A DNA stretch of 35,878 nt. Source: a virus (Duplodnaviria; Heunggongvirae; Uroviricota; Caudoviricetes). A program made the position numbers and the translations under genes. The DNA is taken from the IMG/VR virus record IMGVR_UViG_2703718854_000001; one strand, written 5' to 3'. Shown here in pieces: positions 491-34,432 of the stretch; position 1 is the stretch's first letter, and each line of letters opens with the position of its first letter. Under the pieces are notes generated by a model, which searched no databases, was not told the DNA's origin, and was given only the letters and a program-made list of their open reading frames with translations.

Positions 491-518
491 TAAAAAATAA
501 GCCCGTGTAAGGGAGATT
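491..518. repeat. attL core, 28-bp direct repeat identical to the attR copy
   Basis: taaaaaataagcccgtgtaagggagatt occurs exactly at 491-518 and 34345-34372; it contains the 27-bp core I recall for P2 att. Confidence 0.8.
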
Positions 519-597: not shown

Positions 598-1611
598 TTA
601 CTCTACTGTGGACACTGTGTGGACACTCTCGGCCTCAGTACCACCTCTTAGCGGATTAAGAGAAATGGCGTCCTGAAGGTACTCTGGCGCAAAATGAGCG
701 TAAACCATAGTTTGCTCAATCCGCGTGTGACCTAGTATCCGTTGTAGCGTGATAATACTTCCTCCATTAATCATGAAATGAGTGGCAAAGCTGTGCCTTA
801 GTGCATGTGTGGCTTGCCCCATTGGCAAATCCGGTTTTATTGCTTTCATTGTTCGTCTGAAGCGAGGGTAATCAGCATCAGGGAATAAAAAACCTCGTTT
901 GTTATCCGCGATCATTTTGGCAACAGCCTCTGAGATCGGGACGGTGCGTGGTTTGTTTGTTTTCGTTTTAACAAACGTGACGCGGTTATGGATGATATTT
1001 TCTGCTTTCAAACGAGCTGCTTCTCCCCAACGTGCTCCAGTACTCAGGCAAAGAATCGCAATCTTTTTGTTGTCGCCGTCAAGAGCAGCAAGCAGTAAGG
1101 CAATTTCTTCCTGCGTGAGATAGCCTGTGTCTGGTTTTTCCTCCTTAAGCCTTTTTGTCCCTCTGATAGGGTGCTCACCAAAGAATAACTCCGCTTCAAT
1201 CAGGGCTGTAAACATGCCGCTAATACATGTTAAATCACGATTGATACTCGAAGGTTTAATACCCTGACTTCTTCGGGTGGCGCAGTACTGGCTGATAAGC
1301 GATTTCGTAATTTGAAATGCGCATGGGTCATTCGTTATTTTTGTGAAGATTTCAATTTTTCCAAGATTAGATTTCCCATGCTCTTCGTGTTTACCCTTTA
1401 AATCCCACCAGATCTGTGTCAGCTCCGACAGACGTCGCTTGTCTGTTGGTTTTGATAGCCATTCTTTATTGTGGTGGTTGTACAACGTGTATTTCTCGAA
1501 AGCGACAGCTTCGCTTTTCTTATCAAACTTCCTACGGATGCGTTTTCCATTACGTCCAGTAGGGCGGATGTCCACTTCATATCGACCATCATCGAGTTTT
1601 TTGATTGCCAT
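598..1611 (-). CDS. int: Tyrosine integrase, P2 Int-like (337 aa)
   Basis: 337 aa, same length as P2 Int; C-terminal catalytic signature (ARWGEAARL, HALRHSFATHF, MVYAHF); sits beside attL. Confidence 0.93.
   Translation of the reverse strand: MAIKKLDDGRYEVDIRPTGRNGKRIRRKFDKKSEAVAFEKYTLYNHHNKEWLSKPTDKRRLSELTQIWWDLKGKHEEHGKSNLGKIEIFTKITNDPCAFQITKSLISQYCATRRSQGIKPSSINRDLTCISGMFTALIEAELFFGEHPIRGTKRLKEEKPDTGYLTQEEIALLLAALDGDNKKIAILCLSTGARWGEAARLKAENIIHNRVTFVKTKTNKPRTVPISEAVAKMIADNKRGFLFPDADYPRFRRTMKAIKPDLPMGQATHALRHSFATHFMINGGSIITLQRILGHTRIEQTMVYAHFAPEYLQDAISLNPLRGGTEAESVHTVSTVE
607..625. promoter_or_regulatory. Candidate Int arm-type binding sites: two direct TGTGGACAC repeats 10 bp apart
   Basis: Direct repeats at 607-615 and 617-625; a similar TGTGG(T/A)C pair lies on the other arm at 34286-34304. 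Confidence 0.35.
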
Positions 1612-3908: not shown

Positions 3909-4180
3909 GTATTCGTATTGAAATTGGCGAACGTTATGTCGTTACCAGTGACAGCTTTCAGTTTATTCTCCACGAGAAAAAGAGAGCGGAAAGCGGTAAA
4001 AACGCCGGTCAGGAATGGCTGGCGGTGGTTGGTTATTACCCGAAATTAAGCCAGCTCGTTTCCGGCCTGATGCATCACGATATTCTGACCGGAAGCGCAA
4101 AATCTTTTGCCGATTTAAACGTGCAGGTTGAGCAACTCAGCAGGCGTTGTTCAGAGGCTTTTGGCTCATATGGACGTTAA
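3905..4180 (+). CDS. Small early protein at the P2 orf83 position
   Basis: Position immediately upstream of A; overlapping start/stop. Confidence 0.55.
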   Translation: MSIRIEIGERYVVTSDSFQFILHEKKRAESGKNAGQEWLAVVGYYPKLSQLVSGLMHHDILTGSAKSFADLNVQVEQLSRRCSEAFGSYGR

Positions 4181-6458
4181 AGCCTCCGGGCGTTTTGTCC
4201 CTCCGTCAGCATTTGCCGCAGACACCGGTAAGACGTTTACCGGTGCTTATGCATGGAACGCGCCACGCGAGGCTGTCGGGCGCGAAAGACCCCTTACACG
4301 TGACGAGATGCGTCAGGTGCAAGGTGTTTTATCCACGATAAATCGCCTGCCTTATTTTTTGCGCTCGCTGTTTACTTCACGCTATGACTACATCCGGCGC
4401 AATAAAAGCCCGGTGCACGGGTTTTATTTCCTCACATCCACTTTTCAGCGTCGTTTATGGCCGCGTATTGAGCGTGTGAATCAGCGCCATGAAATGAACA
4501 CCGACGCGTCGTTGCTGTTTTTGGCAGAGCGTGACCACTATGCACGCCTGCCGGGAATGAATGACAAGGAGCTGAAAAAGTTTGCCGCCCGTATCTCATC
4601 GCAGCTTTTCATGATGTATGAGGAACTCTGCGATGCCTGGGTGGATGCGCATGGCGAAAAAGAATCGCTGTTTACGGATGAGGCGCAGGCTCACCTGTAT
4701 GGTCATGTTGCTGGCGCTGCACGTGCTTTCAATATTTCCCCTCTCTACTGGAAAAAATACCGTAAAGGGCAGATGACCACGAGGCAGGCATATTCTGCCA
4801 TTGCCCGTCTGTTTAACGATGAGTGGTGGACTCATCAGCTTAAAGGCCAGCGTATGCGTTGGCATGAGGCGTTACTGATTGCTGTCGGGGAGGTAAATAA
4901 AGACCGTTCACCTTATGCCAGTAAACATGCTATTCGTGATGTGCGTGCGCGCCGCCAGGCAAATCTGGAATTTCTTAAATCGTGTGACCTTGAAAACAGG
5001 GAAACCGGCGAACGCATCGACCTTATCAGTAAGGTGATGGGCAGTATTTCTAATCCAGAAATTCGCCGGATGGAGCTGATGAACACCATCGCCGGAATTG
5101 AGCGTTACGCCGCCGCAGAGGGTGATGTGGGGATGTTTATCACGCTGACCGCGCCGTCAAAGTATCACCCGACACGTCAGGTCGGAAAAGGCGAAAGTAA
5201 AACCGTCCAGCTTAATCACGGCTGGAACCATGAGGCATTTAATCCAAAGGATGCGCAGCGTTATCTCTGCCGTATCTGGAGCCTGATGCGCACGGCATTC
5301 AAGGATAATGATTTACAGGCCTACGGTTTGCGTGTCGTTGAGCCACACCACGACGGAACGCCGCACTGGCATATGATGCTTTTTTGTAATCCACGCCAGC
5401 GTAACCAGATTATTGAAATCATGCGTCGCTATGCGCTCAAAGAGGATGGCGACGAAAGAGGAGCCGCGCGAAACCGTTTTCAGGCAAAACACCTTAACCG
5501 GGGCGGTGCTGCGGGGTATATCGCGAAATACATCTCAAAAAACATCGATGGCTATGCACTGGATGGTCAGCTCGATAACGATACCGGCAGACCGCTGAAA
5601 GACACTGCTGCGGCTGTTACCGCATGGGCGTCAACGTGGCGCATCCCACAATTTAAAACGGTTGGTCTGCCGACAATGGGGGCTTACCGTGAACTACGCA
5701 AATTGCCTCGCGGCGTCAGCATTGCTGATGAGTTTGACGAGCGCGTCGAGGCTGCACGCGCCGCCGCAGACAGTGGTGATTTTGCGTTATATATCAGCGC
5801 GCAGGGTGGGGCAAATGTCCCGCGCGATTGTCAGACTGTCAGGGTCGCCCGTAGTCCGTCGGATGAAGTTAACGAGTACGAGGAAGAAGTCGAGAGAGTG
5901 GTCGGCATTTACGCGCCGCATCTCGGCGCGCGTCATATTCATATCACCAGAACGACGGACTGGCGCATTGTGCCGAAAGTTCCGGTCGTTGAGCCTTTGA
6001 CTTTAAAAAGCGGCATCGCCGCGCCTCGGAGTCCTGTCAATAACTGTGGAAAGCTCACCGGCGGTAATACTTCGTTACCGGTTCCCACGCCTTCTGAGCA
6101 CGCCGCAGCAGTGCTTAATCTGGTTGATGACGGTGTTATCGAATGGAATGACCCGGAGGTCGTGAGGACGCTCAGGGGTGCATTAAAACACGGACTGAGA
6201 AGACCAAACCGTCAGCAAAGAAACGGAAGCCCGTTAAAACCACATGAAATTGCGCCATCGGCCAGACTGACCCGGTCGGAACGAATGCAAATCACCCGTA
6301 TCCGCGTTGACCTTGCTCAGAACGGTATCAGGCCGCAGCGATGGGAGCTTGAGGCGCTGGCGCGTGGGGCAACCGTAAATTATGGCGGAAAAAAATTCAC
6401 GTATCTGGTTGCTAATGAGTGGTTCGGGTTTCAAGATGACGTGTCATTTTTCATATAA
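4170..6458 (+). CDS. A: Replication initiation protein A (rolling-circle nickase), about 762 aa
   Basis: Size and position match P2 A (761 aa); HWH and YIAKYISK motifs are typical of rolling-circle initiators; start taken at the in-frame ATG at 4170. Confidence 0.88.
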   Translation: MDVKASGRFVPPSAFAADTGKTFTGAYAWNAPREAVGRERPLTRDEMRQVQGVLSTINRLPYFLRSLFTSRYDYIRRNKSPVHGFYFLTSTFQRRLWPRIERVNQRHEMNTDASLLFLAERDHYARLPGMNDKELKKFAARISSQLFMMYEELCDAWVDAHGEKESLFTDEAQAHLYGHVAGAARAFNISPLYWKKYRKGQMTTRQAYSAIARLFNDEWWTHQLKGQRMRWHEALLIAVGEVNKDRSPYASKHAIRDVRARRQANLEFLKSCDLENRETGERIDLISKVMGSISNPEIRRMELMNTIAGIERYAAAEGDVGMFITLTAPSKYHPTRQVGKGESKTVQLNHGWNHEAFNPKDAQRYLCRIWSLMRTAFKDNDLQAYGLRVVEPHHDGTPHWHMMLFCNPRQRNQIIEIMRRYALKEDGDERGAARNRFQAKHLNRGGAAGYIAKYISKNIDGYALDGQLDNDTGRPLKDTAAAVTAWASTWRIPQFKTVGLPTMGAYRELRKLPRGVSIADEFDERVEAARAAADSGDFALYISAQGGANVPRDCQTVRVARSPSDEVNEYEEEVERVVGIYAPHLGARHIHITRTTDWRIVPKVPVVEPLTLKSGIAAPRSPVNNCGKLTGGNTSLPVPTPSEHAAAVLNLVDDGVIEWNDPEVVRTLRGALKHGLRRPNRQQRNGSPLKPHEIAPSARLTRSERMQITRIRVDLAQNGIRPQRWELEALARGATVNYGGKKFTYLVANEWFGFQDDVSFFI

Positions 6459-6535
6459 AACATTTCAAAATTCAATGTAATGAAAGCATATCGTATATCG
6501 CTTTAATATGTGTTATTCTTCTTGGTTGTTAATGT

Positions 6536-6563
6536 TTGATTTTATATGAAAAAATATTATATA
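6536..6563 (+). promoter_or_regulatory. Candidate sigma70 promoter for the RT locus (TTGATT, 16-nt spacer, TATATA)
   Basis: Sequence match only, in a very AT-rich segment where chance matches are common. Confidence 0.25.
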
Positions 6564-6619
6564 TAGAAAGATCAAATACAACGGTTTACTTGTTATGATG
6601 CAATTATTGGTTAGTTAGT

Positions 6620-6870
6620 GAGATACATCGCCATCAATTGGGTATTTTTTACCCGTGGAAAGTTAACACTTTCTACCGTTTACCCCGCGCAACGCCCCTG
6701 CCAGCGACAAGAGTCACAGGACCAGGTGGTATGGCGTATGGGAATTCGAACCCTTTGGGCGACAAAGGGTTCGTGGAGCAGGGAGCTAGTGCTGTTCAAT
6801 CTCATCCTTATGAGGGCGAACCATAGTGTTGGAGCAGACATACCGTTTGCACACTATGGGCATAAGGAGC
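6620..6870 (+). ncRNA. Candidate structured non-coding RNA or leader upstream of the RT operon (possible retron msr-msd)
   Basis: Perfect 11-bp hairpin at 6747-6773; 9-bp stem 6821-6829/6851-6859 nested in an 8-bp stem 6805-6812/6861-6868 that pairs with the downstream Shine-Dalgarno; the overlapping ORFs have no ribosome-binding site and look non-coding. Confidence 0.3.
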
Positions 6871-6875
6871 AAATC

Positions 6876-7031
6876 ATGAAGAATGATAAATTAACCAACG
6901 AACAGCAGGCGCAGAACAAGTCAAACCTGAAAAAGAGGGCTGGTTATGCTTGGGAATTATTCAAATGGGGTATTAGACTGTTTGATTTAGTCACTCGAGC
7001 ACTGGACTACTTAGAAGGGGGTGGTGAGTAA
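6876..7031 (+). CDS. Small protein (51 aa), first ORF of the RT operon
   Basis: ATG at 6876 with AAGGAG 6 nt upstream; hydrophilic N-terminus and amphipathic C-terminus; no recognisable domain. Confidence 0.35.
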   Translation: MKNDKLTNEQQAQNKSNLKKRAGYAWELFKWGIRLFDLVTRALDYLEGGGE

Positions 7032-7067
7032 TGCGTCCTCCCTAGTTTCAATAGCATGGAGTTGCCT

Positions 7068-7376
7068 ATGTTACATAAAGCCCTTCGTTTAATAAGGCAA
7101 TACCATAAAGAATCAATAGTTGAGTTATCTTCATCTTTAGGTATTCCAAAAGACAAAATAGTATCGCTTGAAAGCGGAGTTTGGTCACCGTCGATTGAAG
7201 TCTTAGAGCGTTACGCCTCCCATTTCGACATACCAGTATCCTCTTTAGTATTCTTTTCGGAATCATTAGGCACGCAAGGCCGTTTGTCTAAGCGATTGCG
7301 TTTAAATTTAGCCGGTAAAGTTCTGGATGTTCTGGAGTGGGTAAGTAATAAAAATGAAAAAACGGAAAAAGCTTAA
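7068..7376 (+). CDS. XRE-family HTH protein (about 102 aa) immediately upstream of, and overlapping, the RT gene
   Basis: Cro/C1-like HTH (SIVELSSSLGIPKDKIVSLESG); GGAG 6 nt upstream of the ATG at 7068 (alternative ATG at 7056); 3' end overlaps the RT start by 23 nt. Confidence 0.65.
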   Translation: MLHKALRLIRQYHKESIVELSSSLGIPKDKIVSLESGVWSPSIEVLERYASHFDIPVSSLVFFSESLGTQGRLSKRLRLNLAGKVLDVLEWVSNKNEKTEKA

Positions 7377-8304
7377 GGTTAATACTAAAAATAAATCTTA
7401 TGACATAATGGATTCGCCATTTTACAAACTCAAAAGTAAAAGAAAACTGGCGAATTTGCTTTGTGTTAGTCTTGAAGAATTATACTCTTTGAGAAAAGAT
7501 GAAGGAAACTATTCCGTTTTTGAGCAACTTTCTAAAAAAGGAAAAGCACGAAAAATACAAAAGCCTTTAGAAAAACTAGAACTTGTACATACACGAATTG
7601 CAAGTTTGTTATCACGGATTGCTTTGCCAGAATATCTGCACTCGGGGAAGAAGAAGTGCTCTAATGTGACGAATGCTAAAGCTCATCTTAATAATGAAAA
7701 GATGATGACAACAGATATTAAAGCTTTTTTTCCATCAACTACAAGAGGGATGATATTTTCTTTTTTCTTTTCGATGATGAAAATGTCATCTGATGTTGCT
7801 GATGTTTTGTCCCACATATGTACTTGTCATGACCGATTACCAACAGGTAGTCGCATCAGTATGCCGTTGGCATATTTTGCAAATTCAAGAATGTTTGGTG
7901 AAATATATCAACTTTGCCAAAAGTTACGAGTTAACATGACTGTTTATGTTGATGATCTCACTTTTTCAGGTGGTAACGTAAATCGATTGTTTTGCGCTGT
8001 AATTCGTAAGATCGTTAATAAGCATGGACATGTTATACACCCAACGAAAACAAAATTATATGCCAGAGATAAGCCTAAGTTGGTAACTGGAGTTATTGTA
8101 TTCGGTAATGCTTTAAAAGTTAGGAATGAGCAGCATTTTTTGATGGCTAGGGAAATAGATTATTGGAAAATAATTAAAGACGCCGAAAATGCGAGAGAAA
8201 CAATCATTGCCAAAAAGCTCTTTGGCCGTTTGCATTCAATGGGAGTGATTGAGCAACGTTACAAATCGAAGGTGCTTACTTTAAAGGCTAATACTGCAAA
8301 TTAA
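7354..8304 (+). CDS. Reverse transcriptase, retron-type (316 aa)
   Basis: YVDD active-site motif; NAKAH (NAxxH), DIKAFFPS, LPTGSxxSxxLA and a VTG motif (KLVTGVIVF) align block by block with the retron Ec86 RT recalled from memory; 316 aa is retron-sized; AT-rich cargo. Confidence 0.8.
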   Translation: MKKRKKLKVNTKNKSYDIMDSPFYKLKSKRKLANLLCVSLEELYSLRKDEGNYSVFEQLSKKGKARKIQKPLEKLELVHTRIASLLSRIALPEYLHSGKKKCSNVTNAKAHLNNEKMMTTDIKAFFPSTTRGMIFSFFFSMMKMSSDVADVLSHICTCHDRLPTGSRISMPLAYFANSRMFGEIYQLCQKLRVNMTVYVDDLTFSGGNVNRLFCAVIRKIVNKHGHVIHPTKTKLYARDKPKLVTGVIVFGNALKVRNEQHFLMAREIDYWKIIKDAENARETIIAKKLFGRLHSMGVIEQRYKSKVLTLKANTAN

Positions 8305-8427
8305 CATATTGAATGTATTGCATAAAAGCATCAATAATTAAAATGACTTGGCGTTAGTAACGCCGCAAGTGCAGGAATTTACTTTCGATGCAGGCGGCGT
8401 TGATTAGAAACCTCAGAAAGTAGTTAG

Positions 8428-8865
8428 CTATGAAGCTGACGTCACAAAATTAACGCCAAGAGTCAACAGGTTTGTCACTGCTCCAGCAATTACACCTGGA
8501 GTTCCGTCTTTTACTGCACTGATAATTTTATCACCCATCGTTTCATTACCGCCAAGTGCTTCGGGTTTTTTGTTGAGCACCGCGAGTGCTTTCTCGGTCA
8601 GGCGCACATCATGAAAACCGGTCTGATGGTCTGTTCCGTACAGAATATAGCCGTTTTCGCTTAGGAAAGTGAATGTGCCATCAACCACACTACGCAACTG
8701 ATTCAGTGCTTTCATTTCTGGTGAGTTAAGTTGGTCAAAGTAGTCATCAGGTAACGCGGCGTTAAATTTTTTGTAGGTGATGACTTGTGGTACAGGAAAG
8801 TTATCCCATAGCACCGCAAAGATTTCTGCCGTCTGTTGGTTGAATAATTCGAGATTTTTGGACAT
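8428..8865 (-). CDS. Hypothetical protein (145 aa) with a predicted C-terminal transmembrane anchor
   Basis: Good Shine-Dalgarno (GAAAGGGAA); C-terminal hydrophobic stretch GVIAGAVTNLLTLGVNFV; convergent with the RT gene. Confidence 0.55.
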   Translation of the reverse strand: MSKNLELFNQQTAEIFAVLWDNFPVPQVITYKKFNAALPDDYFDQLNSPEMKALNQLRSVVDGTFTFLSENGYILYGTDHQTGFHDVRLTEKALAVLNKKPEALGGNETMGDKIISAVKDGTPGVIAGAVTNLLTLGVNFVTSAS

Positions 8866-9196
8866 GCATAGTTCCCTTTCATCAATTAAAGACCCTTATG
8901 CCGACTGGGCAAAGAGGCTAACTGTAATGGCCTCAAATAACGACCTGAGCTCTCGCGAGGTGGATAGTTACACTGAAAAAATGGTTGAACAAGCCAGTAA
9001 AGATGAGCTTATGGTCGTTATAAAATACCTGTTAAATCACATCAGAATGAATAAATAAAATGATCTATATCAAGATGTTATCTCACATTTATGAAAGTCC
9101 GTGGACAACGATTTTTCTGCTAATTGTTGTCAGTACGTGCCTCAACAGTGTGATTGGTGCATTGCGCGGCCAGTGACAACTATAAAAATTGATCAG

Positions 9197-9224
9197 AACC
9201 GGCATCATGAATGCCGGTTTTTTT
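9197..9224 (+). terminator. Rho-independent terminator (9-bp GC-rich stem, T-run)
   Basis: aaccggcat-catga-atgccggtt followed by tttttt. Confidence 0.5.
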
Positions 9225-9382
9225 GTGCTTTTTCTGTGATATCCCCGTTTTTATCTGTGCATGCAATATGTGCATGGTTTTGCATGTGCCGGAGTTACAT
9301 GTTCTGGCCGTGCGTCCGCCAAGACTGGCGTGGCTCAAAAGCGGTATTGCAACTGCATTAAAACCGCCCCATGAAGCGGGCG

Positions 9383-9401
9383 GGCGAGGCGGGGAAAGCA
9401 C
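9383..9401. other. cos site: P2-type 19-nt cohesive-end sequence GGCGAGGCGGGGAAAGCAC
   Basis: Exact match to the P2 cohesive-end sequence as I recall it; lies between the old/tin-type region and Q, as in P2. Confidence 0.55.
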
Positions 9402-9545
9402 TGCGCGCAGCCCGTCAAGAATAAAAAACTCTCTTGCAGGTAGAAAACATTCTGTTAACATTTGTCTGGATGAAGTTTAAGTTAGAAATTTATGTTAATG
9501 AACTGATTGATACTTATGTTTTGTCAATAATTTAGGAATGTTAAG

Positions 9546-10682
9546 ATGACAAGCTATGTTACATGGGCAAATAAAGGTGGAATAGGTAAATCAACATTAT
9601 CTTTCCAATTGGCGTTAAAATACGCGAGATTAAACACGAATAAAAAAGTAATCATAATAGATATGAGCCCTCAGTGTGATGTCTCTAGAATGTTATTGGG
9701 GGGAGGGCATTTTAACGGTGAGCAAAAGATCTTGGATAGAATGACCTCTAATCCAAGGTTGACAATTTACCGGTATCTTGAGGCCTGTGTTAATGATGTT
9801 CCTTCTGGGAGGGGATGGCCTGATTCATTATCATACTTAATTGAACCTAATTCTTTTCGAGACGAAAACGCAGAAAAATTGCCTGATAATATTAGTATGG
9901 TCTGTGGAGATTTCGACTTAGAGAGGGTTACTCATAGTTTAGATAATTTGCCACAACCTCAACCAAGAGGCGGGCGTGTTCCGTCGGGTGCTCATTACTC
10001 AGCATATTTATTGCCACGCACTTTTCTACGGAAAATGGTGGAGGACTTTGAGCGCGAATACAGGGATGTGACAATTTTTATTGATACGGATCCATATTAT
10101 TCGGTAGTAACAACACATCTGGGGCTTCTGGCTGCAGACAGGTTGATTTCGGCATACTCTCCTTCATCTCAAGCAAGCCAGTATGCAGTATATCGTAGCT
10201 TAGAGTTTCTATACGATCCTAATTATGGACTGGTGCAAGAGGTTAATACACAGAGAGCAATATATGGTACCCCTTGGTTTGATAGTTTAAATAATATAAT
10301 TACAACACCGAATATATCTGTTGCAAATCTTTATATGGTAGTAAGTAACATGAATACGCCTCAGGCTGGAAGAGGACAACCTCCATACAGCCAACCCCAA
10401 AAACTACATAGACAATCGCAACAAGAAGTTATATCTAGAATTAATGACACATTAAGTAGTTTGGGGATCGCGCATGATTATGTTCATGACTATTTATGGG
10501 ATCTCAAGAGATTAGGTTTGATTTGTGATTATAATGGTTTTGATTTAGCAACAATTCAATTAGGGGAAAATTATGCGGAACCAAGTGATGATGGTAATTA
10601 TTATGTAAATACTACAGGTGGAACACCGATCCAATTATCATCCTATAATGCTAGGATCGAAACTGTTACATCAAAACTATAA
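9546..10682 (+). CDS. ParA/MinD-family P-loop ATPase with an unrecognised C-terminal extension of about 130 aa (378 aa)
   Basis: Deviant Walker A KGGIGKST; A' (IIIDMSPQ) and Walker B-like (IFIDTDP) motifs; AT-rich; no parB-like partner nearby. Confidence 0.7.
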   Translation: MTSYVTWANKGGIGKSTLSFQLALKYARLNTNKKVIIIDMSPQCDVSRMLLGGGHFNGEQKILDRMTSNPRLTIYRYLEACVNDVPSGRGWPDSLSYLIEPNSFRDENAEKLPDNISMVCGDFDLERVTHSLDNLPQPQPRGGRVPSGAHYSAYLLPRTFLRKMVEDFEREYRDVTIFIDTDPYYSVVTTHLGLLAADRLISAYSPSSQASQYAVYRSLEFLYDPNYGLVQEVNTQRAIYGTPWFDSLNNIITTPNISVANLYMVVSNMNTPQAGRGQPPYSQPQKLHRQSQQEVISRINDTLSSLGIAHDYVHDYLWDLKRLGLICDYNGFDLATIQLGENYAEPSDDGNYYVNTTGGTPIQLSSYNARIETVTSKL

Positions 10683-10688
10683 GAACTA

Positions 10689-10710
10689 GGGGAGCAAATG
10701 CTCCCTTTCT
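10689..10710 (+). terminator. Candidate rho-independent terminator after the ParA-like gene
   Basis: gggagc-aaat-gctccc hairpin followed by tttct. Confidence 0.4.
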
Positions 10711-10754
10711 ATATATGGGTTATTAATTACCCGCTTATATAAATATTGAAGAAA

Positions 10755-11774
10755 CTATAGGGTGTATTGTCTGAATTTTATTACATTCTGACCGAGCCAG
10801 CCGTTTATTTCCCGAATCCTGTCCTGTAACGGGATAAGCTCATTGCGGACAAAGACCTTTGCCACTTTCTCAATATCACCCAGCGCCCCGACGTTCTCCG
10901 GCTTGCCGCCCATCAACTGAAAGGGGATGCGGTGCGCGTCCAGCAGGTCTGCGGCGCTGGCTTTTTTGATATTAAAAAAATCATCCTTCGTTGCCACTTC
11001 ACTGAGCGGGATAATTTTAATGCCGTCGGCTTTCCCTTGTGGGGCATAGAGAAACAGGTTTTTAAAGTTGTTGCGGCCTTTCGACTTCACCATGTTTTCG
11101 CGGAGCATTTCGATATCGTTGCGATCCTGCACGGCATCGGTGACGTACATGATGTATCCGGCATGTGCGCCGTTTTCGTAATACTTGCGGCGGAACAGCG
11201 TGGCCGACTCATTCAGCCAGGCAGAGTTAAGGGCGCTGAGATATTCCGGCAGGCCGTACAGCTCCTGATTAATATCCGGCTCCAGCAGGTGAAACACGGA
11301 GCCGGGCGCGAAAGGTGTCGGCTCATGGAAGGACGGCACCCACCAGTAAACATCCTCTTCCACGCCACGGCGGGTATATTTTGCCGGTGAGGTTTCCAGT
11401 CTGATGACCTTACCGGTGGTGCTGTATCGCTTTTCCAGAAACGCATTACCGAACACCAGAAAATCCAGCACAAAGCGGCTGAAATCCTGCTGGGAAAGCC
11501 ACGGATGCGGGATAAATGTCGAGGCCAGAATATTACGTTTGACGTAAATCGGTGAGCTGTGATGCACGGCAGCACGCAGACTTTTTGCCAGACCGGTAAA
11601 GCTGACCGGTGGCTCATACCATCTGCCGTTACTGATGCACTCGACGTAATCCAGAATGTCACGACGGTCGAGTACCGGCACCGGCTCACCAAAGGTGAAT
11701 GCCTCCATTTTCGGGGCGCTGGCGGTCATTTTTTTTGCCGCAGGTTGCGGTGTTTTCCCTTTTTTCTTACTCAT
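10755..11774 (-). CDS. Q: Portal protein
   Basis: 339 aa at the position of P2 Q (344 aa); stop/start overlap with P. Confidence 0.88.
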   Translation of the reverse strand: MSKKKGKTPQPAAKKMTASAPKMEAFTFGEPVPVLDRRDILDYVECISNGRWYEPPVSFTGLAKSLRAAVHHSSPIYVKRNILASTFIPHPWLSQQDFSRFVLDFLVFGNAFLEKRYSTTGKVIRLETSPAKYTRRGVEEDVYWWVPSFHEPTPFAPGSVFHLLEPDINQELYGLPEYLSALNSAWLNESATLFRRKYYENGAHAGYIMYVTDAVQDRNDIEMLRENMVKSKGRNNFKNLFLYAPQGKADGIKIIPLSEVATKDDFFNIKKASAADLLDAHRIPFQLMGGKPENVGALGDIEKVAKVFVRNELIPLQDRIREINGWLGQNVIKFRQYTL

Positions 11775-13546
11775 CAGTAAAACTCCAGAATGGTGGATGT
11801 CAGCGGGGTGCTGATACCGGCGGTGAGTGGCTCATTTAACAGGGCGTGCATGGTCGCCCAGGCGAGGTCGGCGTGGCTGGCTTCCTCGCTGCGGCTGGCC
11901 TCATAGGTGGCGCTGCGTCCGCTGCTGGTCATGGTCTTGCGGATAGCCATGAACGAGCTGGTGATGTCGGTGGCGCTGACGTCATATTCCAGACAGCCAC
12001 GGCGGATAACGTCTTTTGCCTTGAGCACCATTGCGGTTTTCATTTCCGGCGTGTAGCGGATATCGCGCGCGGCGGGATAGAACGAGCGCACGAGCTGGAA
12101 CACGCCGACACCGAGGCCGGTGGCATCAATCCCGATGTATTCAACGTTATATTTTTCGGTGAGTTTGCGGATGGATTCCGCCTGGGTGGCAAAGTCCATG
12201 CCTTTCCACTGGTGACGCTCAAGTATTCTGAATTTGCCACCGGCCACCACCGGCGGTGCCAGCACCACGCATCCGGCGCTGTCGCCACGGTGTGACGGGT
12301 CGTAACCAATCCATACCGGGCGGGAGCCGAACGGATTGGCGGCAAACGGCGCATAGTCTTCCCATTCTTCCAGCGTGTCGACCATGCAGCGTTGCAGCTC
12401 CTCGAACGGGAACACCGACGCCTTGTCGTCAACAAATTCACACATGAACAGGTTTTTAAAATCGTCGGCGCTGTTTTCACGTTTGAGCTGCTCAATGTCG
12501 AACAGCGTGCAGCCACCTTTCAGGGCGTCCTCAATGGTGACAATCTGCCGCCACTGGCCGTCCGCACAGAGAAGCCCACCGGCAAGGGCGTTATGACTGA
12601 CGTCGATTTCCACGCGTTCGGCGGCGCTGGCGCGTCCCCGGTTGAACAGTTCACCTGACCAGAACGGGTAGGCGTCGTGCGCCAGCGTGGACGGGGTGGA
12701 GAAATAGGTCGAACGCAGGTGACTCTGTGAGGCCATACCTGATGCCACCTTACGCAGTACCTGAAAATTCGGGATCCAGAAAATCTCGTCGACGTACAGG
12801 TCGCCGTTATGGCTCTGTGCGGTGTTGGAGTTGGTGCCGAGAAAAATTAGTTTTGCGCCGTTATTGCCCAGGACAATCGGGTCACCGGTCAGGTCAACGT
12901 CAACCAGACGGGCAAAGGCGATGATGTATTCGCGGAACACATACGCCTGCGTTTTACTGGCCGACAGAAAAATCTGGTTATGGCCGGTTTTCAGGGCGCG
13001 CAGCAGCGCCTCGCGGGAAAAATAAAACGTTGCGCCAATCTGGCGGGATTTCAGTATATCGCGGATGCGGTGCTCAAGCCCGGCGCGATACCAGTGCAAC
13101 TGATAGTCGAAAGACTGCTCAAAGAAAATCTGCTCCAGCTTTTCGATGGCTTCGTCACTGAAAAAATTCTTTTTCGGTTTGCGACGCCCGCCTTTGTTGC
13201 GGTTAGCGACGTTCGGATTAAGGTCTGCCTCGTTGCCGGTCTGACTGTAGCGGTTGACCCGCGCCAGTCGTTCAATCTGGCGTCCCAGCAGGTCAATTTC
13301 CTTGAAGTCACCGCCGGTTTTCTGCGGTTTGATGATGAGCTGGGTCAGCCGCGCTTCCAGGCTCATTTCGACACGGCTGATGGGGGCAACGCTGTCCCAG
13401 CCGTCGCGCTGTTTCCAGCTCTGTACCGTCGGGCGTTTCATCTGCAACATGGCGGCAATCTGCGGCACGGAAAACCCCTGCCAGTACAGCAGCGCCGCCT
13501 GCCGACGCGGGTCGTGTAAAAGAGTGGTGTCTGTGGTGATGGTCAT
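11774..13546 (-). CDS. P: Terminase large (ATPase) subunit, 590 aa
   Basis: Length equals P2 P when started at the ATG with a GAGG Shine-Dalgarno; divergent from O. Confidence 0.88.
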   Translation of the reverse strand: MTITTDTTLLHDPRRQAALLYWQGFSVPQIAAMLQMKRPTVQSWKQRDGWDSVAPISRVEMSLEARLTQLIIKPQKTGGDFKEIDLLGRQIERLARVNRYSQTGNEADLNPNVANRNKGGRRKPKKNFFSDEAIEKLEQIFFEQSFDYQLHWYRAGLEHRIRDILKSRQIGATFYFSREALLRALKTGHNQIFLSASKTQAYVFREYIIAFARLVDVDLTGDPIVLGNNGAKLIFLGTNSNTAQSHNGDLYVDEIFWIPNFQVLRKVASGMASQSHLRSTYFSTPSTLAHDAYPFWSGELFNRGRASAAERVEIDVSHNALAGGLLCADGQWRQIVTIEDALKGGCTLFDIEQLKRENSADDFKNLFMCEFVDDKASVFPFEELQRCMVDTLEEWEDYAPFAANPFGSRPVWIGYDPSHRGDSAGCVVLAPPVVAGGKFRILERHQWKGMDFATQAESIRKLTEKYNVEYIGIDATGLGVGVFQLVRSFYPAARDIRYTPEMKTAMVLKAKDVIRRGCLEYDVSATDITSSFMAIRKTMTSSGRSATYEASRSEEASHADLAWATMHALLNEPLTAGISTPLTSTILEFY

Positions 13547-13719
13547 GAATACCTCGCCGTGATGAATACACGGCAAGGCTACTGAGTCGCGCCCCGCGAT
13601 TCGCTAAGGTGCTGTTGTGTCAGTGATAAGCCATCCGGGACTGATGGCGGAGGATGCGCATCGTCGGGAAACTGATGCCGACATGTGACTCCTCTAATCA
13701 CTATTCAGGACTCCTGACA

Positions 13720-14574
13720 ATGGCAAAAAAAGTCTCAAAATTCTTTCGTATCGGCGTTGAGGGTGACACCTGTGACGGGCGTGTCATCAGTGCGCAGGAT
13801 ATTCAGGAAATGGCCGAAACCTTTGACCCGCGAGTCTATGGTTGCCGCATTAACCTGGAACATCTGCGCGGCGTCCTGCCTGACGGTATTTTTAAGCGTT
13901 ATGGCGATGTGGTCGAACTGAAGGCCGAAAAGATTGACGATGATTCGGCGCTGAAAGGCAAATGGGCGCTGTTTGCGAAAATCACCCCGACCGATGACCT
14001 TATCGCGATGAACAAGGCCGCGCAGAAGGTCTATACCTCAATGGAAATTCAGCCGAACTTTGCCAATACAGGCAAATGTTATCTGGTGGGTCTGGCCGTC
14101 ACCGATGACCCGGCAAGCCTCGGCACGGAATACCTGGAATTCTGCCGCACGGCAAAACACAACCCTCTGAACCGCTTCAAATTAAGCCCTGAAAACCTGA
14201 TTTCAGTGGCAACGCCTGTTGAGCTGGAATTTGAAGACCTGCCTGAAACCGTGTTCACAGCCCTGACCGAAAAGGTGAAATCCATTTTTGGCCGCAAACA
14301 GGCCAGCGATGACGCCCGTCTGAATGACGTGCATGAAGCGGTGACCGCTGTTGCTGAACATGTGCAGGAAAAACTGAGCGCCACTGAGCAGCGCCTCGCT
14401 GAGATGGAAACCGCTTTTTCCGCACTTAAGCAGGATGTGACTGACAGGGCGGATGAAACCAGCCAGGCATTCACCCGCCTGAAAAACAGTCTCGACCACA
14501 CCGAAAGTCTGACCCAGCAGCGCCGCAGTAAAGCCACCGGCGGTGGCGGTGACGCCCTGATGACGAACTGCTGA
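13720..14574 (+). CDS. O: Capsid scaffolding protein, 284 aa
   Basis: Length and position match P2 O. Confidence 0.88.
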   Translation: MAKKVSKFFRIGVEGDTCDGRVISAQDIQEMAETFDPRVYGCRINLEHLRGVLPDGIFKRYGDVVELKAEKIDDDSALKGKWALFAKITPTDDLIAMNKAAQKVYTSMEIQPNFANTGKCYLVGLAVTDDPASLGTEYLEFCRTAKHNPLNRFKLSPENLISVATPVELEFEDLPETVFTALTEKVKSIFGRKQASDDARLNDVHEAVTAVAEHVQEKLSATEQRLAEMETAFSALKQDVTDRADETSQAFTRLKNSLDHTESLTQQRRSKATGGGGDALMTNC

Positions 14575-14632
14575 CCGGCGTCAGTCAGTCCGGGAAAACC
14601 TTCACGATTAACCCTTAATTTCAGGAAAAACT

Positions 14633-15706
14633 ATGCGCCAGGAAACCCGCTTTAAATTTAATGCCTACCTGTCCCGTGTTGCCGAACTGAACGGCATCGA
14701 CGCCGGTGATGTGTCGAAAAAATTCACCGTTGAACCGTCGGTCACCCAGACCCTGATGAACACCATGCAGGAGTCCTCTGACTTTCTGACCCGCATCAAC
14801 ATTGTGCCGGTCAGCGAAATGAAAGGGGAAAAAATTGGTATTGGTGTCACCGGCTCCATCGCCAGCACCACCGACACCGCCGGTGGCACCGAGCGTCAGC
14901 CGAAGGACTTCTCGAAGCTGGCGTCCAACAAGTACGAATGCGACCAGGTTAACTTCGATTTTTATATCCGCTACAAAACGCTGGACCTGTGGGCGCGTTA
15001 TCAGGATTTCCAGCTCCGTATCCGTAACGCCATTATCAAACGCCAGTCCCTTGATTTCATCATGGCCGGTTTTAACGGCGTGAAGCGTGCCGAAACCTCT
15101 GACCGCAACAGTAATCCGATGCTGCAGGATGTGGCGGTCGGCTGGCTGCAGAAATACCGCAATGAAGCCCCGGCGCGCGTGATGAGCAAGGTCACTGACG
15201 AGGAAGGCCGCACCACCTCTGAGGTTATCCGCGTGGGTAAGGGCGGTGATTATGCCAGCCTTGATGCACTGGTGATGGATGCGACCAACAACCTGATTGA
15301 ACCGTGGTATCAGGAAGACCCTGACCTTGTGGTGATTGTGGGACGTCAGCTACTGGCGGACAAGTATTTTCCCATCGTCAACAAGGAGCAGGACAACAGC
15401 GAAATGCTGGCCGCTGACGTCATCATCAGCCAGAAACGCATCGGCAACCTGCCAGCGGTACGCGTCCCGTACTTCCCGGCGGATGCGATGCTCATCACGA
15501 AGCTGGAAAACCTGTCCATCTACTACATGGATGACAGCCATCGCCGCGTGATTGAGGAAAACCCGAAACTCGACCGCGTGGAGAACTACGAGTCAATGAA
15601 CATTGATTACGTGGTGGAAGACTACGCCGCCGGTTGTCTGGTGGAAAAAATTAAGGTCGGTGATTTCTCCACACCGGCTAAAGCGACCGCAGAGCCGGGA
15701 GCGTAA
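14633..15706 (+). CDS. N: Major capsid protein, 357 aa
   Basis: Length and position match P2 N. Confidence 0.9.
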   Translation: MRQETRFKFNAYLSRVAELNGIDAGDVSKKFTVEPSVTQTLMNTMQESSDFLTRINIVPVSEMKGEKIGIGVTGSIASTTDTAGGTERQPKDFSKLASNKYECDQVNFDFYIRYKTLDLWARYQDFQLRIRNAIIKRQSLDFIMAGFNGVKRAETSDRNSNPMLQDVAVGWLQKYRNEAPARVMSKVTDEEGRTTSEVIRVGKGGDYASLDALVMDATNNLIEPWYQEDPDLVVIVGRQLLADKYFPIVNKEQDNSEMLAADVIISQKRIGNLPAVRVPYFPADAMLITKLENLSIYYMDDSHRRVIEENPKLDRVENYESMNIDYVVEDYAAGCLVEKIKVGDFSTPAKATAEPGA

Positions 15707-20124: not shown

Positions 20125-20868
20125 TTATCTGGTTAAATAAGTGAGCTCACTCTCTTTAGGTATTAGCTGAGTGTCTCCTCCCCATTCGTTCATGATGTTT
20201 TTTCTCGCATTCCAGTATTCTTGGTAAGTATCTTGATGAACAGTGTAGATACTTGCTAAAAGCCAGTGTTGATACTTAAGAGTCGTGTATTGGTATTCTT
20301 CTATTATCGGTAAAATGAATAAGTTTTTTTGCTTTAGTGAGATTAAATATTCTTTTGTTTGTTTGGTGGTTCTGTCATTGTTTAAGATTCTTTCAATCTT
20401 AAATGAAAAGCCGTGCATGTTTATATTTCTTTGGAGGTGCATGAATGATGATATTGATGGGGCGATCATGTTTTGATGCGTCAGGATGTTTCTTAAATCC
20501 TCCATTAATTTTATTACTGGATTATTTCGGAATTCATGATTGATGAATGCCTCTGATTTGATTTTAATGTCGGCAATATTTAATGCTTTTGTTTTAAGTA
20601 GGTTGCGCGTTGAATCTCTAAATGATAATGCTGAAGATATATAATTGAAAAGGTGTCTTGATATGTTTAAATGTTCTTTTTTAAATTTGTCTCTGTTAAA
20701 TGAATGACGGGAAACAATGTCAGGGGAGTTGAATTTGCTTAATTCATGTTGGACAACTTCGTAATTGGCAATATGCATATGTCCAAGTAAATTGGTGTCG
20801 GAGATTTTTAAATACTCTTGATGGGCGATGGTGTCTTTTTGATTTTCCCAGATTTGATATTTATCCAT
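20125..20868 (-). CDS. AT-rich hypothetical protein (247 aa) on the opposite strand between S and V (P2 orf30 position)
   Basis: Long ORF with much lower GC than the backbone, antisense to the late operons; no domain recognised. Confidence 0.6.
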   Translation of the reverse strand: MDKYQIWENQKDTIAHQEYLKISDTNLLGHMHIANYEVVQHELSKFNSPDIVSRHSFNRDKFKKEHLNISRHLFNYISSALSFRDSTRNLLKTKALNIADIKIKSEAFINHEFRNNPVIKLMEDLRNILTHQNMIAPSISSFMHLQRNINMHGFSFKIERILNNDRTTKQTKEYLISLKQKNLFILPIIEEYQYTTLKYQHWLLASIYTVHQDTYQEYWNARKNIMNEWGGDTQLIPKESELTYLTR

Positions 20869-26127: not shown

Positions 26128-27354
26128 ATGTTACAGTTCAGCTTTGTATCAAATGACGTTGTTATGACTTACGACGGTGACAGCGGAGAACAAATAATTT
26201 GGGTTTGGGAGAGTTTAAATAAATTTCAAACAGTATGCATTTCACGAATTTTTAACTTTCAACTCCAGGATTTGAGAAACCCACCGTCAACCGTTCAGGA
26301 TTTTAATGATTACGAATATTCCTTTAATTTTGGCACGCTTAATAATGAATACATAACAGTTCCGGGACGGATTCTAAGCATTAATCGAGATGTCCTTATA
26401 CATAAGTCCATCAAGCTTGAAAGGAAAGTATTTGCGTCAGAACGCAACGTCTCCATTTTTGGTCGGCTTTCAAAACTACTCGATCACACTAATCCCATCA
26501 TCATCGGAGGAGATAAGCCGGAAGCTATACCAAAAAGCGTATTCCAGGAGTTGCAAAGTAAATTCCCCAACACAGGGGAACTGGATCGCTATGCTAATGC
26601 AAGGGTTCACGCTATTCTCGCAGGTTATCTTGATGGTATGAAAGATGCTCGCGAACGGTATGAACATTACCTAAACAGAAAAACAGTGATCAGAAAAACC
26701 GACAAACTGGGTTTAGAAGTTTTAAATAAGCTCGAAATTGAGAAATATACACTCATAAGAGACATTATCCAGGATGCGTTGAATAACAAAACTAACTTGT
26801 CTGAAGATGACTGGCAGAGCCTGATGATACCCTTCATCACATTACTTTTTCCAAAATATATCAAGGTCCTCGAGAAGGTTAAAATTTTCGACTATTACTC
26901 TAATCCTTCGGCTAAAACAAATCGGTTTATAGACATTGCACTGGTGGATGCAAACGGCAACCTTGATATCATCGAAGTCAAAAAGCCGTTTGATGATAAG
27001 ATCCTTCGCAAGACGCCCTATCGCGATAACTATATTCCTACATCAGAACTTAGCGGCGGTATTATGCAGGCTGAAAAGTATATTTTTCATTTATCTAAAT
27101 GGGGTGTTAAGGGTGAAAAAGAGCTTACGAATGCCTACAAGAATTCTCTGCCAGCGGGAATGTGTATTCGTATATCTAACCCAAAAGCCATCATCATTGT
27201 CGGGCGCGATCAGATAGCGAACGGTAACATGACCGACGGTCAGTTGCTTGATTTTGAGATAATCAAACGTAAGTACGCCAACATGATAGACATATTGACG
27301 TACGACGACCTGTTGCGTCGACTTAATAATACGATTGAAGCATTGAAAGGTTGA
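26128..27354 (+). CDS. Cargo protein at the Z/fun position (408 aa) with a C-terminal PD-(D/E)xK-like nuclease motif; Shedu (DUF4263)-like candidate
   Basis: IDIALVD...DIIEVKKP...QAEKY pattern in the C-terminal third; N-terminal 250 aa unrecognised; AT-rich; sits in the G-FI variable locus. Confidence 0.5.
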   Translation: MLQFSFVSNDVVMTYDGDSGEQIIWVWESLNKFQTVCISRIFNFQLQDLRNPPSTVQDFNDYEYSFNFGTLNNEYITVPGRILSINRDVLIHKSIKLERKVFASERNVSIFGRLSKLLDHTNPIIIGGDKPEAIPKSVFQELQSKFPNTGELDRYANARVHAILAGYLDGMKDARERYEHYLNRKTVIRKTDKLGLEVLNKLEIEKYTLIRDIIQDALNNKTNLSEDDWQSLMIPFITLLFPKYIKVLEKVKIFDYYSNPSAKTNRFIDIALVDANGNLDIIEVKKPFDDKILRKTPYRDNYIPTSELSGGIMQAEKYIFHLSKWGVKGEKELTNAYKNSLPAGMCIRISNPKAIIIVGRDQIANGNMTDGQLLDFEIIKRKYANMIDILTYDDLLRRLNNTIEALKG

Positions 27355-32780: not shown

Positions 32781-33943
32781 TGCTGGATGCACTGACATTT
32801 GATGCAGGCAGTACGCTGACGCCGAATTACATGCTGATGCTCGACAGCAGGGATATTACCGGCAATATCAGCGACCGTCTGATGAGCATGACTCTGACGG
32901 ATAACCGGGGCTTTGAGGCTGACCAGCTTGATATTGAACTGAACGATGCCGACGGGCAGGTCGGACTGCCGGTTCGTGGCGCTGTCCTGACGGTGTATAT
33001 CGGCTGGAAAGGTTTTGCCCTGGTATGCAAAGGGAAATTTACCGTTGATGAGGTTGAACACCGGGGCGCGCCGGATGTGGTCACCATCCGCGCCCGGAGT
33101 GCAGATTTTCGCGGGACGCTCAATTCCCGCCGGGAAGGCTCCTGGCATGACACCACGCTCGGTGCGATTGTTGAGGCGATAGCCACCCGTAACAGGCTGG
33201 AAGCCAGTGTCGCTCCGTCACTGGCCGGAATTAAAATCCCGCACATCGACCAGTCGCAGGAGTCCGATGTGAAATTCCTGACCCGTCTTGCTGAACGCAA
33301 CGGCGGCGAGGTGTCGGTAAAAATGGGAAAACTGCTGTTTCTCAAAGCGGGGCAGGGGGTGACGGCCAGCGGTAAAAAAATCCCTCAGATTACCATCACC
33401 CGCAGCGACGGTGACCGTCATCATTTTGCGATTGCTGACCGTGGAGCCTATACCGGCGTAACAGCAAAGTGGTTACACACCAAAGACCCGAAACCGCAAA
33501 AGCAGAAGGTAAAACTGAAACGCAAAAAGAAAGAAAAACACCTGCGCGCACTGGAGCACCCGAAAGCGAAACCGGTCAGGCAGAAGAAAGCGCCAAAAGT
33601 GCCGGAAGCGCGCGAAGGTGAATACATGGCCGGTGAGGCTGACAATGTTTTTGCCCTGACCACGGTATATGCCACGAAAGCGCAGGCCATGCGCGCCGCT
33701 CAGGCGAAGTGGGATAAGCTGCAACGGGGCGTTGCGGAGTTCTCCATCAGTCTGGCTACTGGTCGGGCAGATATTTACACGGAAACGCCGGTCAAAGTAT
33801 CAGGCTTTAAGCGCGTCATAGACGAGCAGGACTGGACAATCACTAAGGTGACACATTTTCTGAATAATAGCGGCTTCACGACGTCCCTGGAGCTTGAGGT
33901 CAGGCTTTCTGATGTGGAGTACGAAACAGAAGATGATGAGTGA
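32780..33943 (+). CDS. D: Tail protein D, 387 aa
   Basis: Length and position match P2 D. Confidence 0.9.
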   Translation: MLDALTFDAGSTLTPNYMLMLDSRDITGNISDRLMSMTLTDNRGFEADQLDIELNDADGQVGLPVRGAVLTVYIGWKGFALVCKGKFTVDEVEHRGAPDVVTIRARSADFRGTLNSRREGSWHDTTLGAIVEAIATRNRLEASVAPSLAGIKIPHIDQSQESDVKFLTRLAERNGGEVSVKMGKLLFLKAGQGVTASGKKIPQITITRSDGDRHHFAIADRGAYTGVTAKWLHTKDPKPQKQKVKLKRKKKEKHLRALEHPKAKPVRQKKAPKVPEAREGEYMAGEADNVFALTTVYATKAQAMRAAQAKWDKLQRGVAEFSISLATGRADIYTETPVKVSGFKRVIDEQDWTITKVTHFLNNSGFTTSLELEVRLSDVEYETEDDE

Positions 33944-34344: not shown

Positions 34345-34372
34345 TAAAAAATAAGCCCGTGTAAGGGAGATT
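34345..34372. repeat. attR core, 28-bp direct repeat identical to attL; it is the 3' terminator end of cyaR
   Basis: Exact repeat of 491-518. Confidence 0.8.
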
Positions 34373-34432
34373 ACACAGGCTAAGGAGGTGGTTCCTGGTA
34401 CAGCTAGCATTTTATGGGTTATGTTTTTCAGC
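34346..34432 (-). ncRNA. cyaR: CyaR (RyeE) Hfq-dependent small RNA
   Basis: The reverse complement of 34346-34432 reads GCTGAAAAACATAACCCATAAAATGCTAGCTGTACCAGGAACCACCTCCTTAGCCTGTGTAATCTCCCTTACACGGGCTTATTTTTT, which matches the E. coli CyaR sequence as I recall it, including the terminator. Confidence 0.8.

Follow-up and report, generated by a model that had tools for sequence, protein, structure and literature searches.

What occupies the interval between the cohesive-end (cos) site and the portal gene Q of a P2-like prophage, and by which route could foreign genes enter it? We studied this question in the IMG/VR virus record IMGVR_UViG_2703718854_000001, a stretch of 35,878 nucleotides (hereafter the window), in which an AT-rich cassette with a gene for a ParA-like ATPase separates a P2-type cos site from Q. 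The explanation that we consider probable is that the window carries an intact P2-like prophage with a genuine cos site, that cos lies between two sub-loci exchanged independently of each other, and that the sub-locus on the portal side is filled by this cassette.

The cos site and the cassette next to it

The features around cos, including the packaging genes on its right-hand side, are the following.

9354–9408: conserved cos core of 55 bp, with 54/55 identity to the circularised P2 junction (BLAST)
9383–9401, plus strand: P2-type cohesive end of 19 nt, GGCGAGGCGGGGAAAGCAC, the single exact match in the window
9409–9545, plus strand: AT-rich leader of the cassette, 137 bp, with an AGGA ribosome-binding site 9 nt before the ATG
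9546–10682, plus strand: gene for an ATPase of 378 amino acids (aa) with a predicted ParA/MinD fold, a cargo (moron) gene; matches to Pfam AAA_31 and CbiA and to phrog_164
10690–10705: GC hairpin GGGAGCAAATGCTCCC where the ParA-like and Q genes converge, a terminator-like site in the scan
10755–10779, minus strand: diverged 3' end of Q (8 codons, stop codon included), the right limit of the cassette; P2 homology resumes at 10780
10755–11774, minus strand: portal protein gene Q, 339 aa (Pfam Phage_portal)
11774–13576, minus strand: terminase large subunit gene P (Pfam Terminase_6N, Terminase_6C and Terminase_5)
downstream of P: scaffold O, capsid N, small terminase M and head completion L (full-length Pfam matches)

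The 19-mer is identical to both annotated cohesive ends of the P2 reference NC_001895 (cosL, 1–19; cosR, 33575–33593), as the preliminary description of this locus had proposed, and the first 19 nt of satellite P4 (NC_001609) are the same. No second copy was found in the window at up to 3 mismatches. At this tolerance 0.03 matches are expected per shuffle, and far fewer for an exact match, so that a chance occurrence of the 19-mer was ruled out. Within the core, the 19-mer is preceded by 29 bp and followed by TGCGCGC. It is common to P2-like phages and P4 satellites and present in all related loci inspected, and homology with the relatives breaks on either side of it. A core of about 55 bp around the cleavage site in P2-family phages and P4 goes back to Ziermann & Calendar 1990, as cited in PMC5694545. 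In this complete P2-like genome, the site has the gpA side to its left and the portal/terminase operon to its right. On sequence grounds, 9383–9401 is a genuine P2-type cos site, at which terminase is predicted to cut and to leave 19-nt 5' overhangs on virion DNA.

Alignment to P2, the check suggested in the preliminary description, placed the boundaries of the insertion at 9408/9409 and 10779/10780. High-identity homology ends at 9408, only 7 bp past the 19-mer, and resumes at 10780, which corresponds to P2 position 227. Positions 27–226 of P2 (200 bp), which contain the spacer, the terminator tQ (160–181) and the last 13 codons of Q (NC_001895), are replaced in the window by 1,371 bp (9409–10779), and the P2 tQ is absent from the window because of this replacement. 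The distance of about 1.35 kb first given from cos to the Q stop codon agrees with the 1,353 bp that we measured (9402–10754), and the gene in between is indeed AT-rich: the G+C content is 38.3% in the ParA-like coding sequence and 37.0% in the segment 9409–10779, against 55.8% in Q and P. The figure of roughly 100 bp given for P2 was too low, as its Q stop codon lies 167 bp beyond the 19-mer (Q coding sequence, 187–1221).

The ParA-like gene reads away from cos and converges on Q. Its own promoter is presumed to lie within 9409–9545, and the hairpin GGGAGCAAATGCTCCC is likely to be a terminator that stands in for the P2 tQ. The end of Q itself differs from that of P2. The tail reads GWLGQNVIKFRQYTL before the stop in the window and GWLGQEVIRFKNYSLDTDND in P2, diverged yet clearly homologous, and the portal protein ends in NVIKFRQYTL instead of EVIRFKNYSLDTDND.

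The loss of all P2 sequence from 27 to 226, tQ included, raises the alternative that the prophage is defective and its cos a relic, or that the insertion disabled packaging by removing a needed spacer, the true ends being absent or elsewhere. Consistent with this, one relative with cargo between cos and Q, EF7-18-58, has a truncated portal pseudogene. However, the 19-mer of the window is exact, the core is conserved at 54 of 55 positions, and the head and packaging genes are without exception full length. The attachment (att) repeats bound 33,854 bp (33.85 kb), close to the 33,593 bp (33.59 kb) of P2. Moreover, P4 is packaged with the P2 terminase although it shares only this core and diverges at the same +7 position, several independent lineages retain cargo between cos and Q beside intact Q and P genes, and the Pseudomonas phage phiCTX is viable with this layout. 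We therefore regard a relic or disabled site as highly improbable, and the window looks to hold a P2-like prophage that is intact and of P2 size.

Cargo on the two sides of cos

The interval from cos to the portal gene is, in P2 and 186, just a spacer of about 170 bp with a terminator and no cargo, and the classical cargo genes of P2 (orf91, tin and old) are all on the gpA side of cos, opposite the ParA-like gene of the window. In this respect the layout is not the canonical one, as first described, but it belongs to a known kind. In phiCTX (NC_003278; Nakayama et al. 1999), cosL (1–21) is followed by ctx on the plus strand (362–1222) and by Q on the minus strand (1417–2469). Both phages show a cohesive end, one accessory gene on the plus strand and a portal gene on the minus strand; ctx has its own promoter and terminators, while the promoter in the window is only presumed. 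They differ in host, in cos sequence (21 nt in phiCTX) and in cargo, which is a pore-forming toxin in phiCTX and a ParA-fold ATPase here. The ctx gene has been cited for the cosL–Q interval as a hotspot of foreign genes (PMC5694545), and the phiRSY1 paper reports four open reading frames (ORFs) between cosL and the Q homologue.

In E. coli, Rousset et al. 2022 described the cos-proximal gpA–gpQ region as a hotspot of anti-phage systems from 18,150 loci (PMC9122126). Positions 6459–10779 of the window lie inside this hotspot and resemble it in being AT-rich, hypervariable among near-identical phages and next to cos. The layout is thus a minority state of a known hotspot and not a new architecture, and since a hotspot at the cos–Q site had already been suggested in the 1990s, current understanding is not overturned.

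To estimate how often the cos–Q interval carries cargo, we used two samples. The first comprised the 80 IMG/VR viral contigs with the most similar portal (97–98% identical to that of the window); downstream of Q, cos could be recognised in 79 of them. The gap from the conserved Q boundary to cos was 127–218 bp in 76 of these 79 relatives, and AT-rich cargo of 1.5–2.1 kb was present in three: L008 (a DUF262-like protein of 353 aa and a 204-aa protein), L060 (one protein of 333 aa, whose C-terminal part has hydrophobic segments) and L083 (proteins of 360 aa and 229 aa). The second sample was spaced evenly among 2,256 complete-genome records of E. coli matching 9340–15000, and the cos and Q matches could be joined in 39 rows. 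Most of these rows span about 4,480 bp, an empty slot, against 5,653 bp in the window. Cargo was found in NC22, which has the ParA-like cassette, and in two rows with an AAA ATPase of 645 aa, one of them plus an extra hypothetical gene. In MS 69-1 the slot holds an Ec48-type retron with a reverse transcriptase and a membrane effector.

Cargo genes fill the cos–Q slot in roughly 4–8% of close relatives. The preliminary description had considered that conserved genes might be common in this interval among related phages. Relatives do carry genes there, but these are variable and restricted to a minority (3 of 79 in IMG/VR and about 3 of 38 among the sampled E. coli prophages). The ParA-like gene occurs in 2 of 5,426 complete E. 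coli genomes, each time in the cos–Q slot. An IS21-family insertion sequence was also detected in the cos–Q spacer of two E. coli rows, which indicates that the spacer tolerates insertions of 2.6 kb; an example is ISEc12 in WP7-S17-ESBL-01 (L101, 3265–5566), an otherwise standard P2-like prophage. An IS30-family insertion is present in one further E. coli row, somewhere within the matched span.

The cargo-bearing loci share a common anatomy. In all seven loci whose junction was read (the window, NC22, MEI4B-1023, L008, L060, L083 and EF7-18-58; MS 69-1 is outside this set), the cargo starts 5–7 bp after the 19-mer, directly following TGCGC(GC). MEI4B-1023 is a carrier of the 645-aa AAA ATPase. 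Transcription runs from cos to Q in 8 of the 8 prophage loci with cos–Q cargo examined. On the right, L060 retains most of the spacer and tQ, and L008 retains tQ, while in L083, MEI4B-1023 and the window the sequence is replaced up to the last Q codons, each with a different Q tail. As the cassettes differ in Q tail, the C-terminal tail of the portal is swapped together with the cargo. The versions of the last 10–15 or so portal residues that were compared are NVIKFRQYTL (window, 10755–10779), EVIKSLDYNL, DIVAFKDYNF and that of P2, EVIRFKNYSLDTDND (L099, 6325–6350; L100, 6104–6130; L001, 187–230), and all keep a hydrophobic-x-x-Y-x-L/F pattern.

As had been noticed before, cargo lies on both sides of cos in the window. 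On the left are a retron-like module (HTH_VI and RT_VI) and small ORFs at 6459–9353, and on the right is the ParA-like gene. The combinations of left and right cargo in three prophages are given below.

Window: left, type VI retron-like module (HTH_VI, RT_VI); right, ParA-like gene
NC22: left, ImmA/IrrE (M78) peptidase and a hypothetical protein; right, the same ParA-like cassette at 99.6% identity
EF7-18-58: left, the same retron module as the window; right, the pair of 360-aa and 229-aa proteins

The homology of NC22 to the window sets in at about 9348, where the cos core has its left edge, and the same holds for other E. coli prophages. Table S5A of Rousset et al. lists the retron module, the M78 pair and the 360-aa and 229-aa pair each alone, and also the M78 pair combined with WP_074400489, which is the ParA-like protein of NC22 (PMC9122126). 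Judging by these combinations, the cargos left and right of cos assort independently. Such reshuffled pairs are the product expected of recombination within or beside the conserved cos core. Each right-hand cassette comes with its own diverged Q tail, which suggests a second crossover in Q, with diverged P2-like phages as donors.

According to the explanation that we favour, the cos core of about 55 bp would divide the hypervariable gpA–gpQ region into a left (gpA–cos) and a right (cos–Q) sub-locus, and in the right one the spacer of about 200 bp with tQ, normally empty, would have been replaced by the AT-rich cassette of 1.37 kb. Cassettes would move between P2-like genomes by homologous recombination in the cos core on one side and in Q on the other, and a crossover in Q during transfer would account for the diverged Q tail of each cassette. 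With cargo on either side of cos, both ends of virion DNA would carry accessory genes; after terminase cleavage, the molecule would begin with the ParA-like gene at the left and end with the retron module at the right. Rousset et al. 2022 speculated that the cohesive ends are a recombination substrate (PMC9122126). In the available text of that paper and of Moura de Sousa et al. 2026 (PMC13586616), gpA–gpQ is handled as one locus, with no split into parts left and right of cos. More generally, we did not find the explicit split at cos, the fixed +7 junction common with P4 or the independent assortment stated in the accessible portions of the literature. As a rule for annotation, AT-rich DNA that starts 5–7 bp after GGCGAGGCGGGGAAAGCAC toward the portal gene of a P2-like prophage can be treated as exchangeable cargo.

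The ParA-like ATPase and its relatives

What could the product of the cassette do? Matches to Pfam are solely to AAA_31 and CbiA, in the N-terminal part of the protein, and in PHROGs it falls in the ParA-like phrog_164. The NCBIfam model ParA_partition gives 26 bits against a cutoff of 180, over residues 9–45 only, and the protein stays below every curated family cutoff. A functional label was sought through PADLOC, NCBIfam and Pfam and rejected, as there were just generic P-loop/ParA matches at the N terminus. The protein was also not found among the tested systems of the hotspot literature. Among 5.8 billion proteins searched, 96 clusters matched, nearly all of 377–378 aa, and the hosts of this family are Enterobacterales, Aeromonas, Vibrio, Pseudomonas, Burkholderia and myxobacteria.

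Among 30 aligned homologues, the deviant Walker A motif NKGGIGKST is nearly invariant, and D-x-SPQCDVSR, GDFDLER, DTDPY and SPSSQASQYA are invariant. The AlphaFold2 model has a mean predicted local distance difference test (pLDDT) score of 91.3 and a predicted template modelling (pTM) score of 0.91. Foldseek searches of the PDB with this model returned ParA, Soj, McdA, delta, MinD and NifH-like ATPases at 12–17% identity and probability 1.0, with template modelling (TM) scores of up to 0.77 when normalised to the shorter targets; the top match is the uncharacterised protein DIP2308. As modelled, the protein is a divergent SIMIBI ATPase of the ParA/MinD fold. It shares with ParA, Soj, MinD and McdA the fold, the deviant Walker A motif NKGGIGKST and a Walker B-like IDTDPY. 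It is about 120 residues longer than Soj and McdA and lacks a partner gene, and these extra residues gave no separate informative Foldseek match in the PDB. The motifs SPQCDVSR, GDFDLER and SPSSQASQYA and the cysteines of the family are atypical of partition ParAs. The cysteines are C44, C81, C120 and C327 in the window protein; two are invariant and two nearly so, and one is inside the switch-like SPQCDVSR. In view of the weak NifH/Get3-type matches, these cysteines could possibly bind a metal or a cluster at the interface of a dimer.

The fold and the deviant Walker A motif with its signature lysine would fit a true partition or maintenance ATPase that aids episomal persistence or segregation of the phage or satellite. 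A putative partitioning system is indeed reported for about a quarter of P2-like hotspots by Rousset et al. (PMC9122126), although the systems mentioned there are of the StbA/Plasmid_stab_B type. The N-terminal 200 aa resemble small ParAs of 5-kb plasmids: in plasmid and phage collections, just ParAs of about 190 aa match, over the first 200 residues and at 30–37% identity. However, the score of the protein against ParA_partition is far below its cutoff, and the cassette of 1.37 kb is a single gene without a ParB or adaptor gene or centromere-like repeats. No partner is conserved across contexts either, a DUF8370 gene being found in Klebsiella only. By tblastn, no full-length member was detected in 50,697 phage and 72,556 plasmid records, and every context seen is an integrated element. 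These integrated-element contexts indicate a mobile accessory gene rather than a plasmid partition protein, and we consider a partition function improbable.

Distant members of the family (50–58% identity) occur in islands with integrase or resolvase genes in Pseudomonas aeruginosa, Burkholderia pseudomallei and Cronobacter, and the Burkholderia copy is near an AbiEi/AbiEii pair. A gene for a serine recombinase (Resolvase) of about 190 aa was observed 0.1–1.7 kb from the ParA-like gene in the Pseudomonas, Burkholderia and Cronobacter islands (L084, 9817–10392; L163, 7257–7832; L161, 4857–5408), and the two genes may form a small mobile module. When species-representative genomes were scanned with the family alignment, about 7 full-length relatives were found, none in the representatives of Enterobacterales, plus a different, shorter ParA family. 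The low number of relatives in the representatives shows that the ParA-like gene is sporadic.

We tentatively propose, with a likelihood a little short of even, that the protein would act as an ATP-dependent dimerising nucleoside triphosphatase, expressed from the prophage as a lysogenic-conversion gene, and that its likeliest role would be in conflict between mobile elements, such as exclusion of phages or satellites, and not in DNA partition. A family that is conserved, mobile, uncharacterised and confined to integrated elements is a reasonable candidate for a defence gene.

The closest relatives are placed in P4-like satellites, where they occupy the P4 hotspot, with the delta/psu genes on one side and the integrase on the other.

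Serratia nevei, 87% identity: P4-like satellite
Pantoea agglomerans, 79%: P4-like satellite with the canonical order alpha-AlpA-delta-Psu ... int
Morganella, 79%: P4-like satellite
Klebsiella quasipneumoniae, 78%: P4-like satellite, in which a DUF8370 gene of 477 aa precedes the ParA-like gene

The Serratia and Pantoea satellites and a relic in Enterobacter have a recognisable P2/P4-type cos, which is oriented like the gene and located 170–350 bp upstream of it. In P4 itself, the 19-mer GGCGAGGCGGGGAAAGCAC is followed by CGCGCGC and then by unique sequence up to gop at position 247, and the cloned P4-type systems in Table S2 of Rousset et al. diverge at the same point after the 19-mer (PMC9122126). 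The same position, orientation and junction at about +7 make the P2 cos–Q slot the positional counterpart of the P4 hotspot, a correspondence relevant to the way in which accessory genes reach helpers and satellites. The two differ in that the far boundary of the P4 hotspot (gop-beta-cII, from cosL to int) is the integrase and that of the slot in the window is the portal gene, and in that P4 is a satellite and the element in the window a full helper phage. The likeness extends to the cargo, since ParA-like homologues are in this hotspot in the satellites of Pantoea, Serratia, Klebsiella and Morganella. Over longer times, the ParA-like family would also circulate in the cos-proximal hotspot of P4-like satellites.

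Some further features of these satellites were observed. In Klebsiella, the DUF8370 gene (L089, 5540–6973) lies upstream of the ParA-like gene on the same strand, with a gap of 28 bp; it is absent from the window and the other contexts and may be an optional partner. P2-type capsid and GPO_N-like proteins are also encoded by the satellites with the ParA-like gene in Klebsiella and Morganella (L089, 5093–5540; L097, 5119–6001). Upstream of the cargo, both have a GC-rich block, CCGCAGGCGGGTGCGGTGTAGTGC, instead of the P2/P4 cos core, and this block could be a cos of another type, for a different helper lineage.

A more direct route would be that the cassette was captured recently from a co-resident P4-like satellite via the shared cos, during co-packaging or co-induction. 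The left junction at cos plus 7 bp is the same as in the P4 hotspot, the nearest protein relatives are just downstream of cos in the Serratia and Pantoea satellites, and cos-end recombination of this sort was proposed by Rousset et al. (PMC9122126). Nevertheless, the satellite copies are just 72–74% identical to the window at the DNA level, and the similarity ends at the limits of the coding sequence. Recent direct capture from P4 was rejected on the basis of this alignment. The right end of the cassette is a diverged Q tail, and a satellite has no Q. In addition, a search for a donor copy elsewhere in E. coli, by distant blastn of 9409–10779 against the 5,426 complete genomes, found the segment only in the cos–Q slot of the P2-like prophages, in 2 genomes. 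We consider recent capture from a satellite quite improbable. Because the DNA identity is confined to the coding sequence and P4 lacks Q, any transfer between satellite and helper must be old or indirect.

The age of such a transfer weighs against the explanation that we favour, and so do several other points. Moura de Sousa et al. 2026 found almost no recent exchange between P2 and P4 (PMC13586616), with which an old transfer agrees. PADLOC-DB v2 (E <= 0.01) contained no family for the ParA-like protein, the case for a defence role being purely one of context, and in the literature on defence systems, both hotspot papers included, no validated example of a ParA-like one was found. The consensus promoter scan of 9409–9545 gave no strong sigma-70 match. 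The frequency estimates for the cos–Q cargo rest on small samples (79 and about 38–39 loci) picked by similarity ranking. Finally, cos cutting and prophage inducibility are presumed here from the sequence. With regard to exchange, the copy in the Serratia satellite, at 87% protein identity, would narrowly pass the threshold of >85% used by Moura de Sousa et al. A bolder and rather unlikely reading is that the 378-aa ATPase would be a new single-gene system for exclusion of phages or satellites, that it would travel specifically in the cos-proximal slot common to P2-like helpers and P4-like satellites, and that the cos–Q interval, as the helper's counterpart of the P4 hotspot, would be a route of gene flow between helper and satellite largely missed by the 2026 survey at >85% identity.

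The prophage frame and its other cargo

The ends of the prophage and its genes outside the cos region are the following.

491–518, plus strand: attL core, a direct repeat of 28 bp, TAAAAAATAAGCCCGTGTAAGGGAGATT, identical to the 28-mer at attR
598–1611, minus strand: integrase (full-length Pfam match)
4128–6458: gpA (full-length Pfam match)
34345–34372, plus strand: attR core, the same 28-mer TAAAAAATAAGCCCGTGTAAGGGAGATT, which overlaps the 3' end of the CyaR small RNA gene
34349–34434, minus strand: CyaR_RyeE (Rfam)
elsewhere in the window: tail sheath, gpD and Ogr (full-length Pfam matches)

A U32 peptidase gene lies beyond the right att repeat, and the prophage is next to cyaR/yegQ. As the right att copy overlaps the 3' end of cyaR, integration rebuilds the end of this gene from phage sequence.

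The cargo to the left of cos comprises the following features.

6459–9353: gpA-side cargo region, 39% GC
6618–7031, plus strand: ORF of 137 aa
7056–7376, plus strand: HTH_VI (PADLOC, 7.7e-31), overlapping RT_VI
7354–8304, plus strand: retron-type RT_VI (PADLOC, 3.9e-105)
8428–8865, minus strand: ORF of 145 aa
8777–9058, plus strand: small ORF
9195–9221: hairpin

The small ORFs beside the retron-like module match phrog_5826, phrog_2266 and phrog_2454, families without known function. An Rfam scan near cos for retron msr/msd or other RNA returned none, the sole match in the window being CyaR at attR.

Two more cargo genes were observed away from cos. The ORF of 247 aa at 20125–20868 (minus strand, 33% GC), between the head/lysis and the baseplate genes, marks a fourth cargo site; it matches phrog_12680, of unknown function, and no family in Pfam, NCBIfam or PADLOC. 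A full-length SduA/Shedu nuclease gene is present at 26128–27354 on the plus strand (PADLOC SduA, 4e-219; 39.6% GC), with the tail-fibre genes on one side and the sheath gene FI on the other, at the classical Z/fun variable locus. With Shedu and the retron-like module, the prophage has at least two recognisable defence modules, in addition to two unknown cargo genes.

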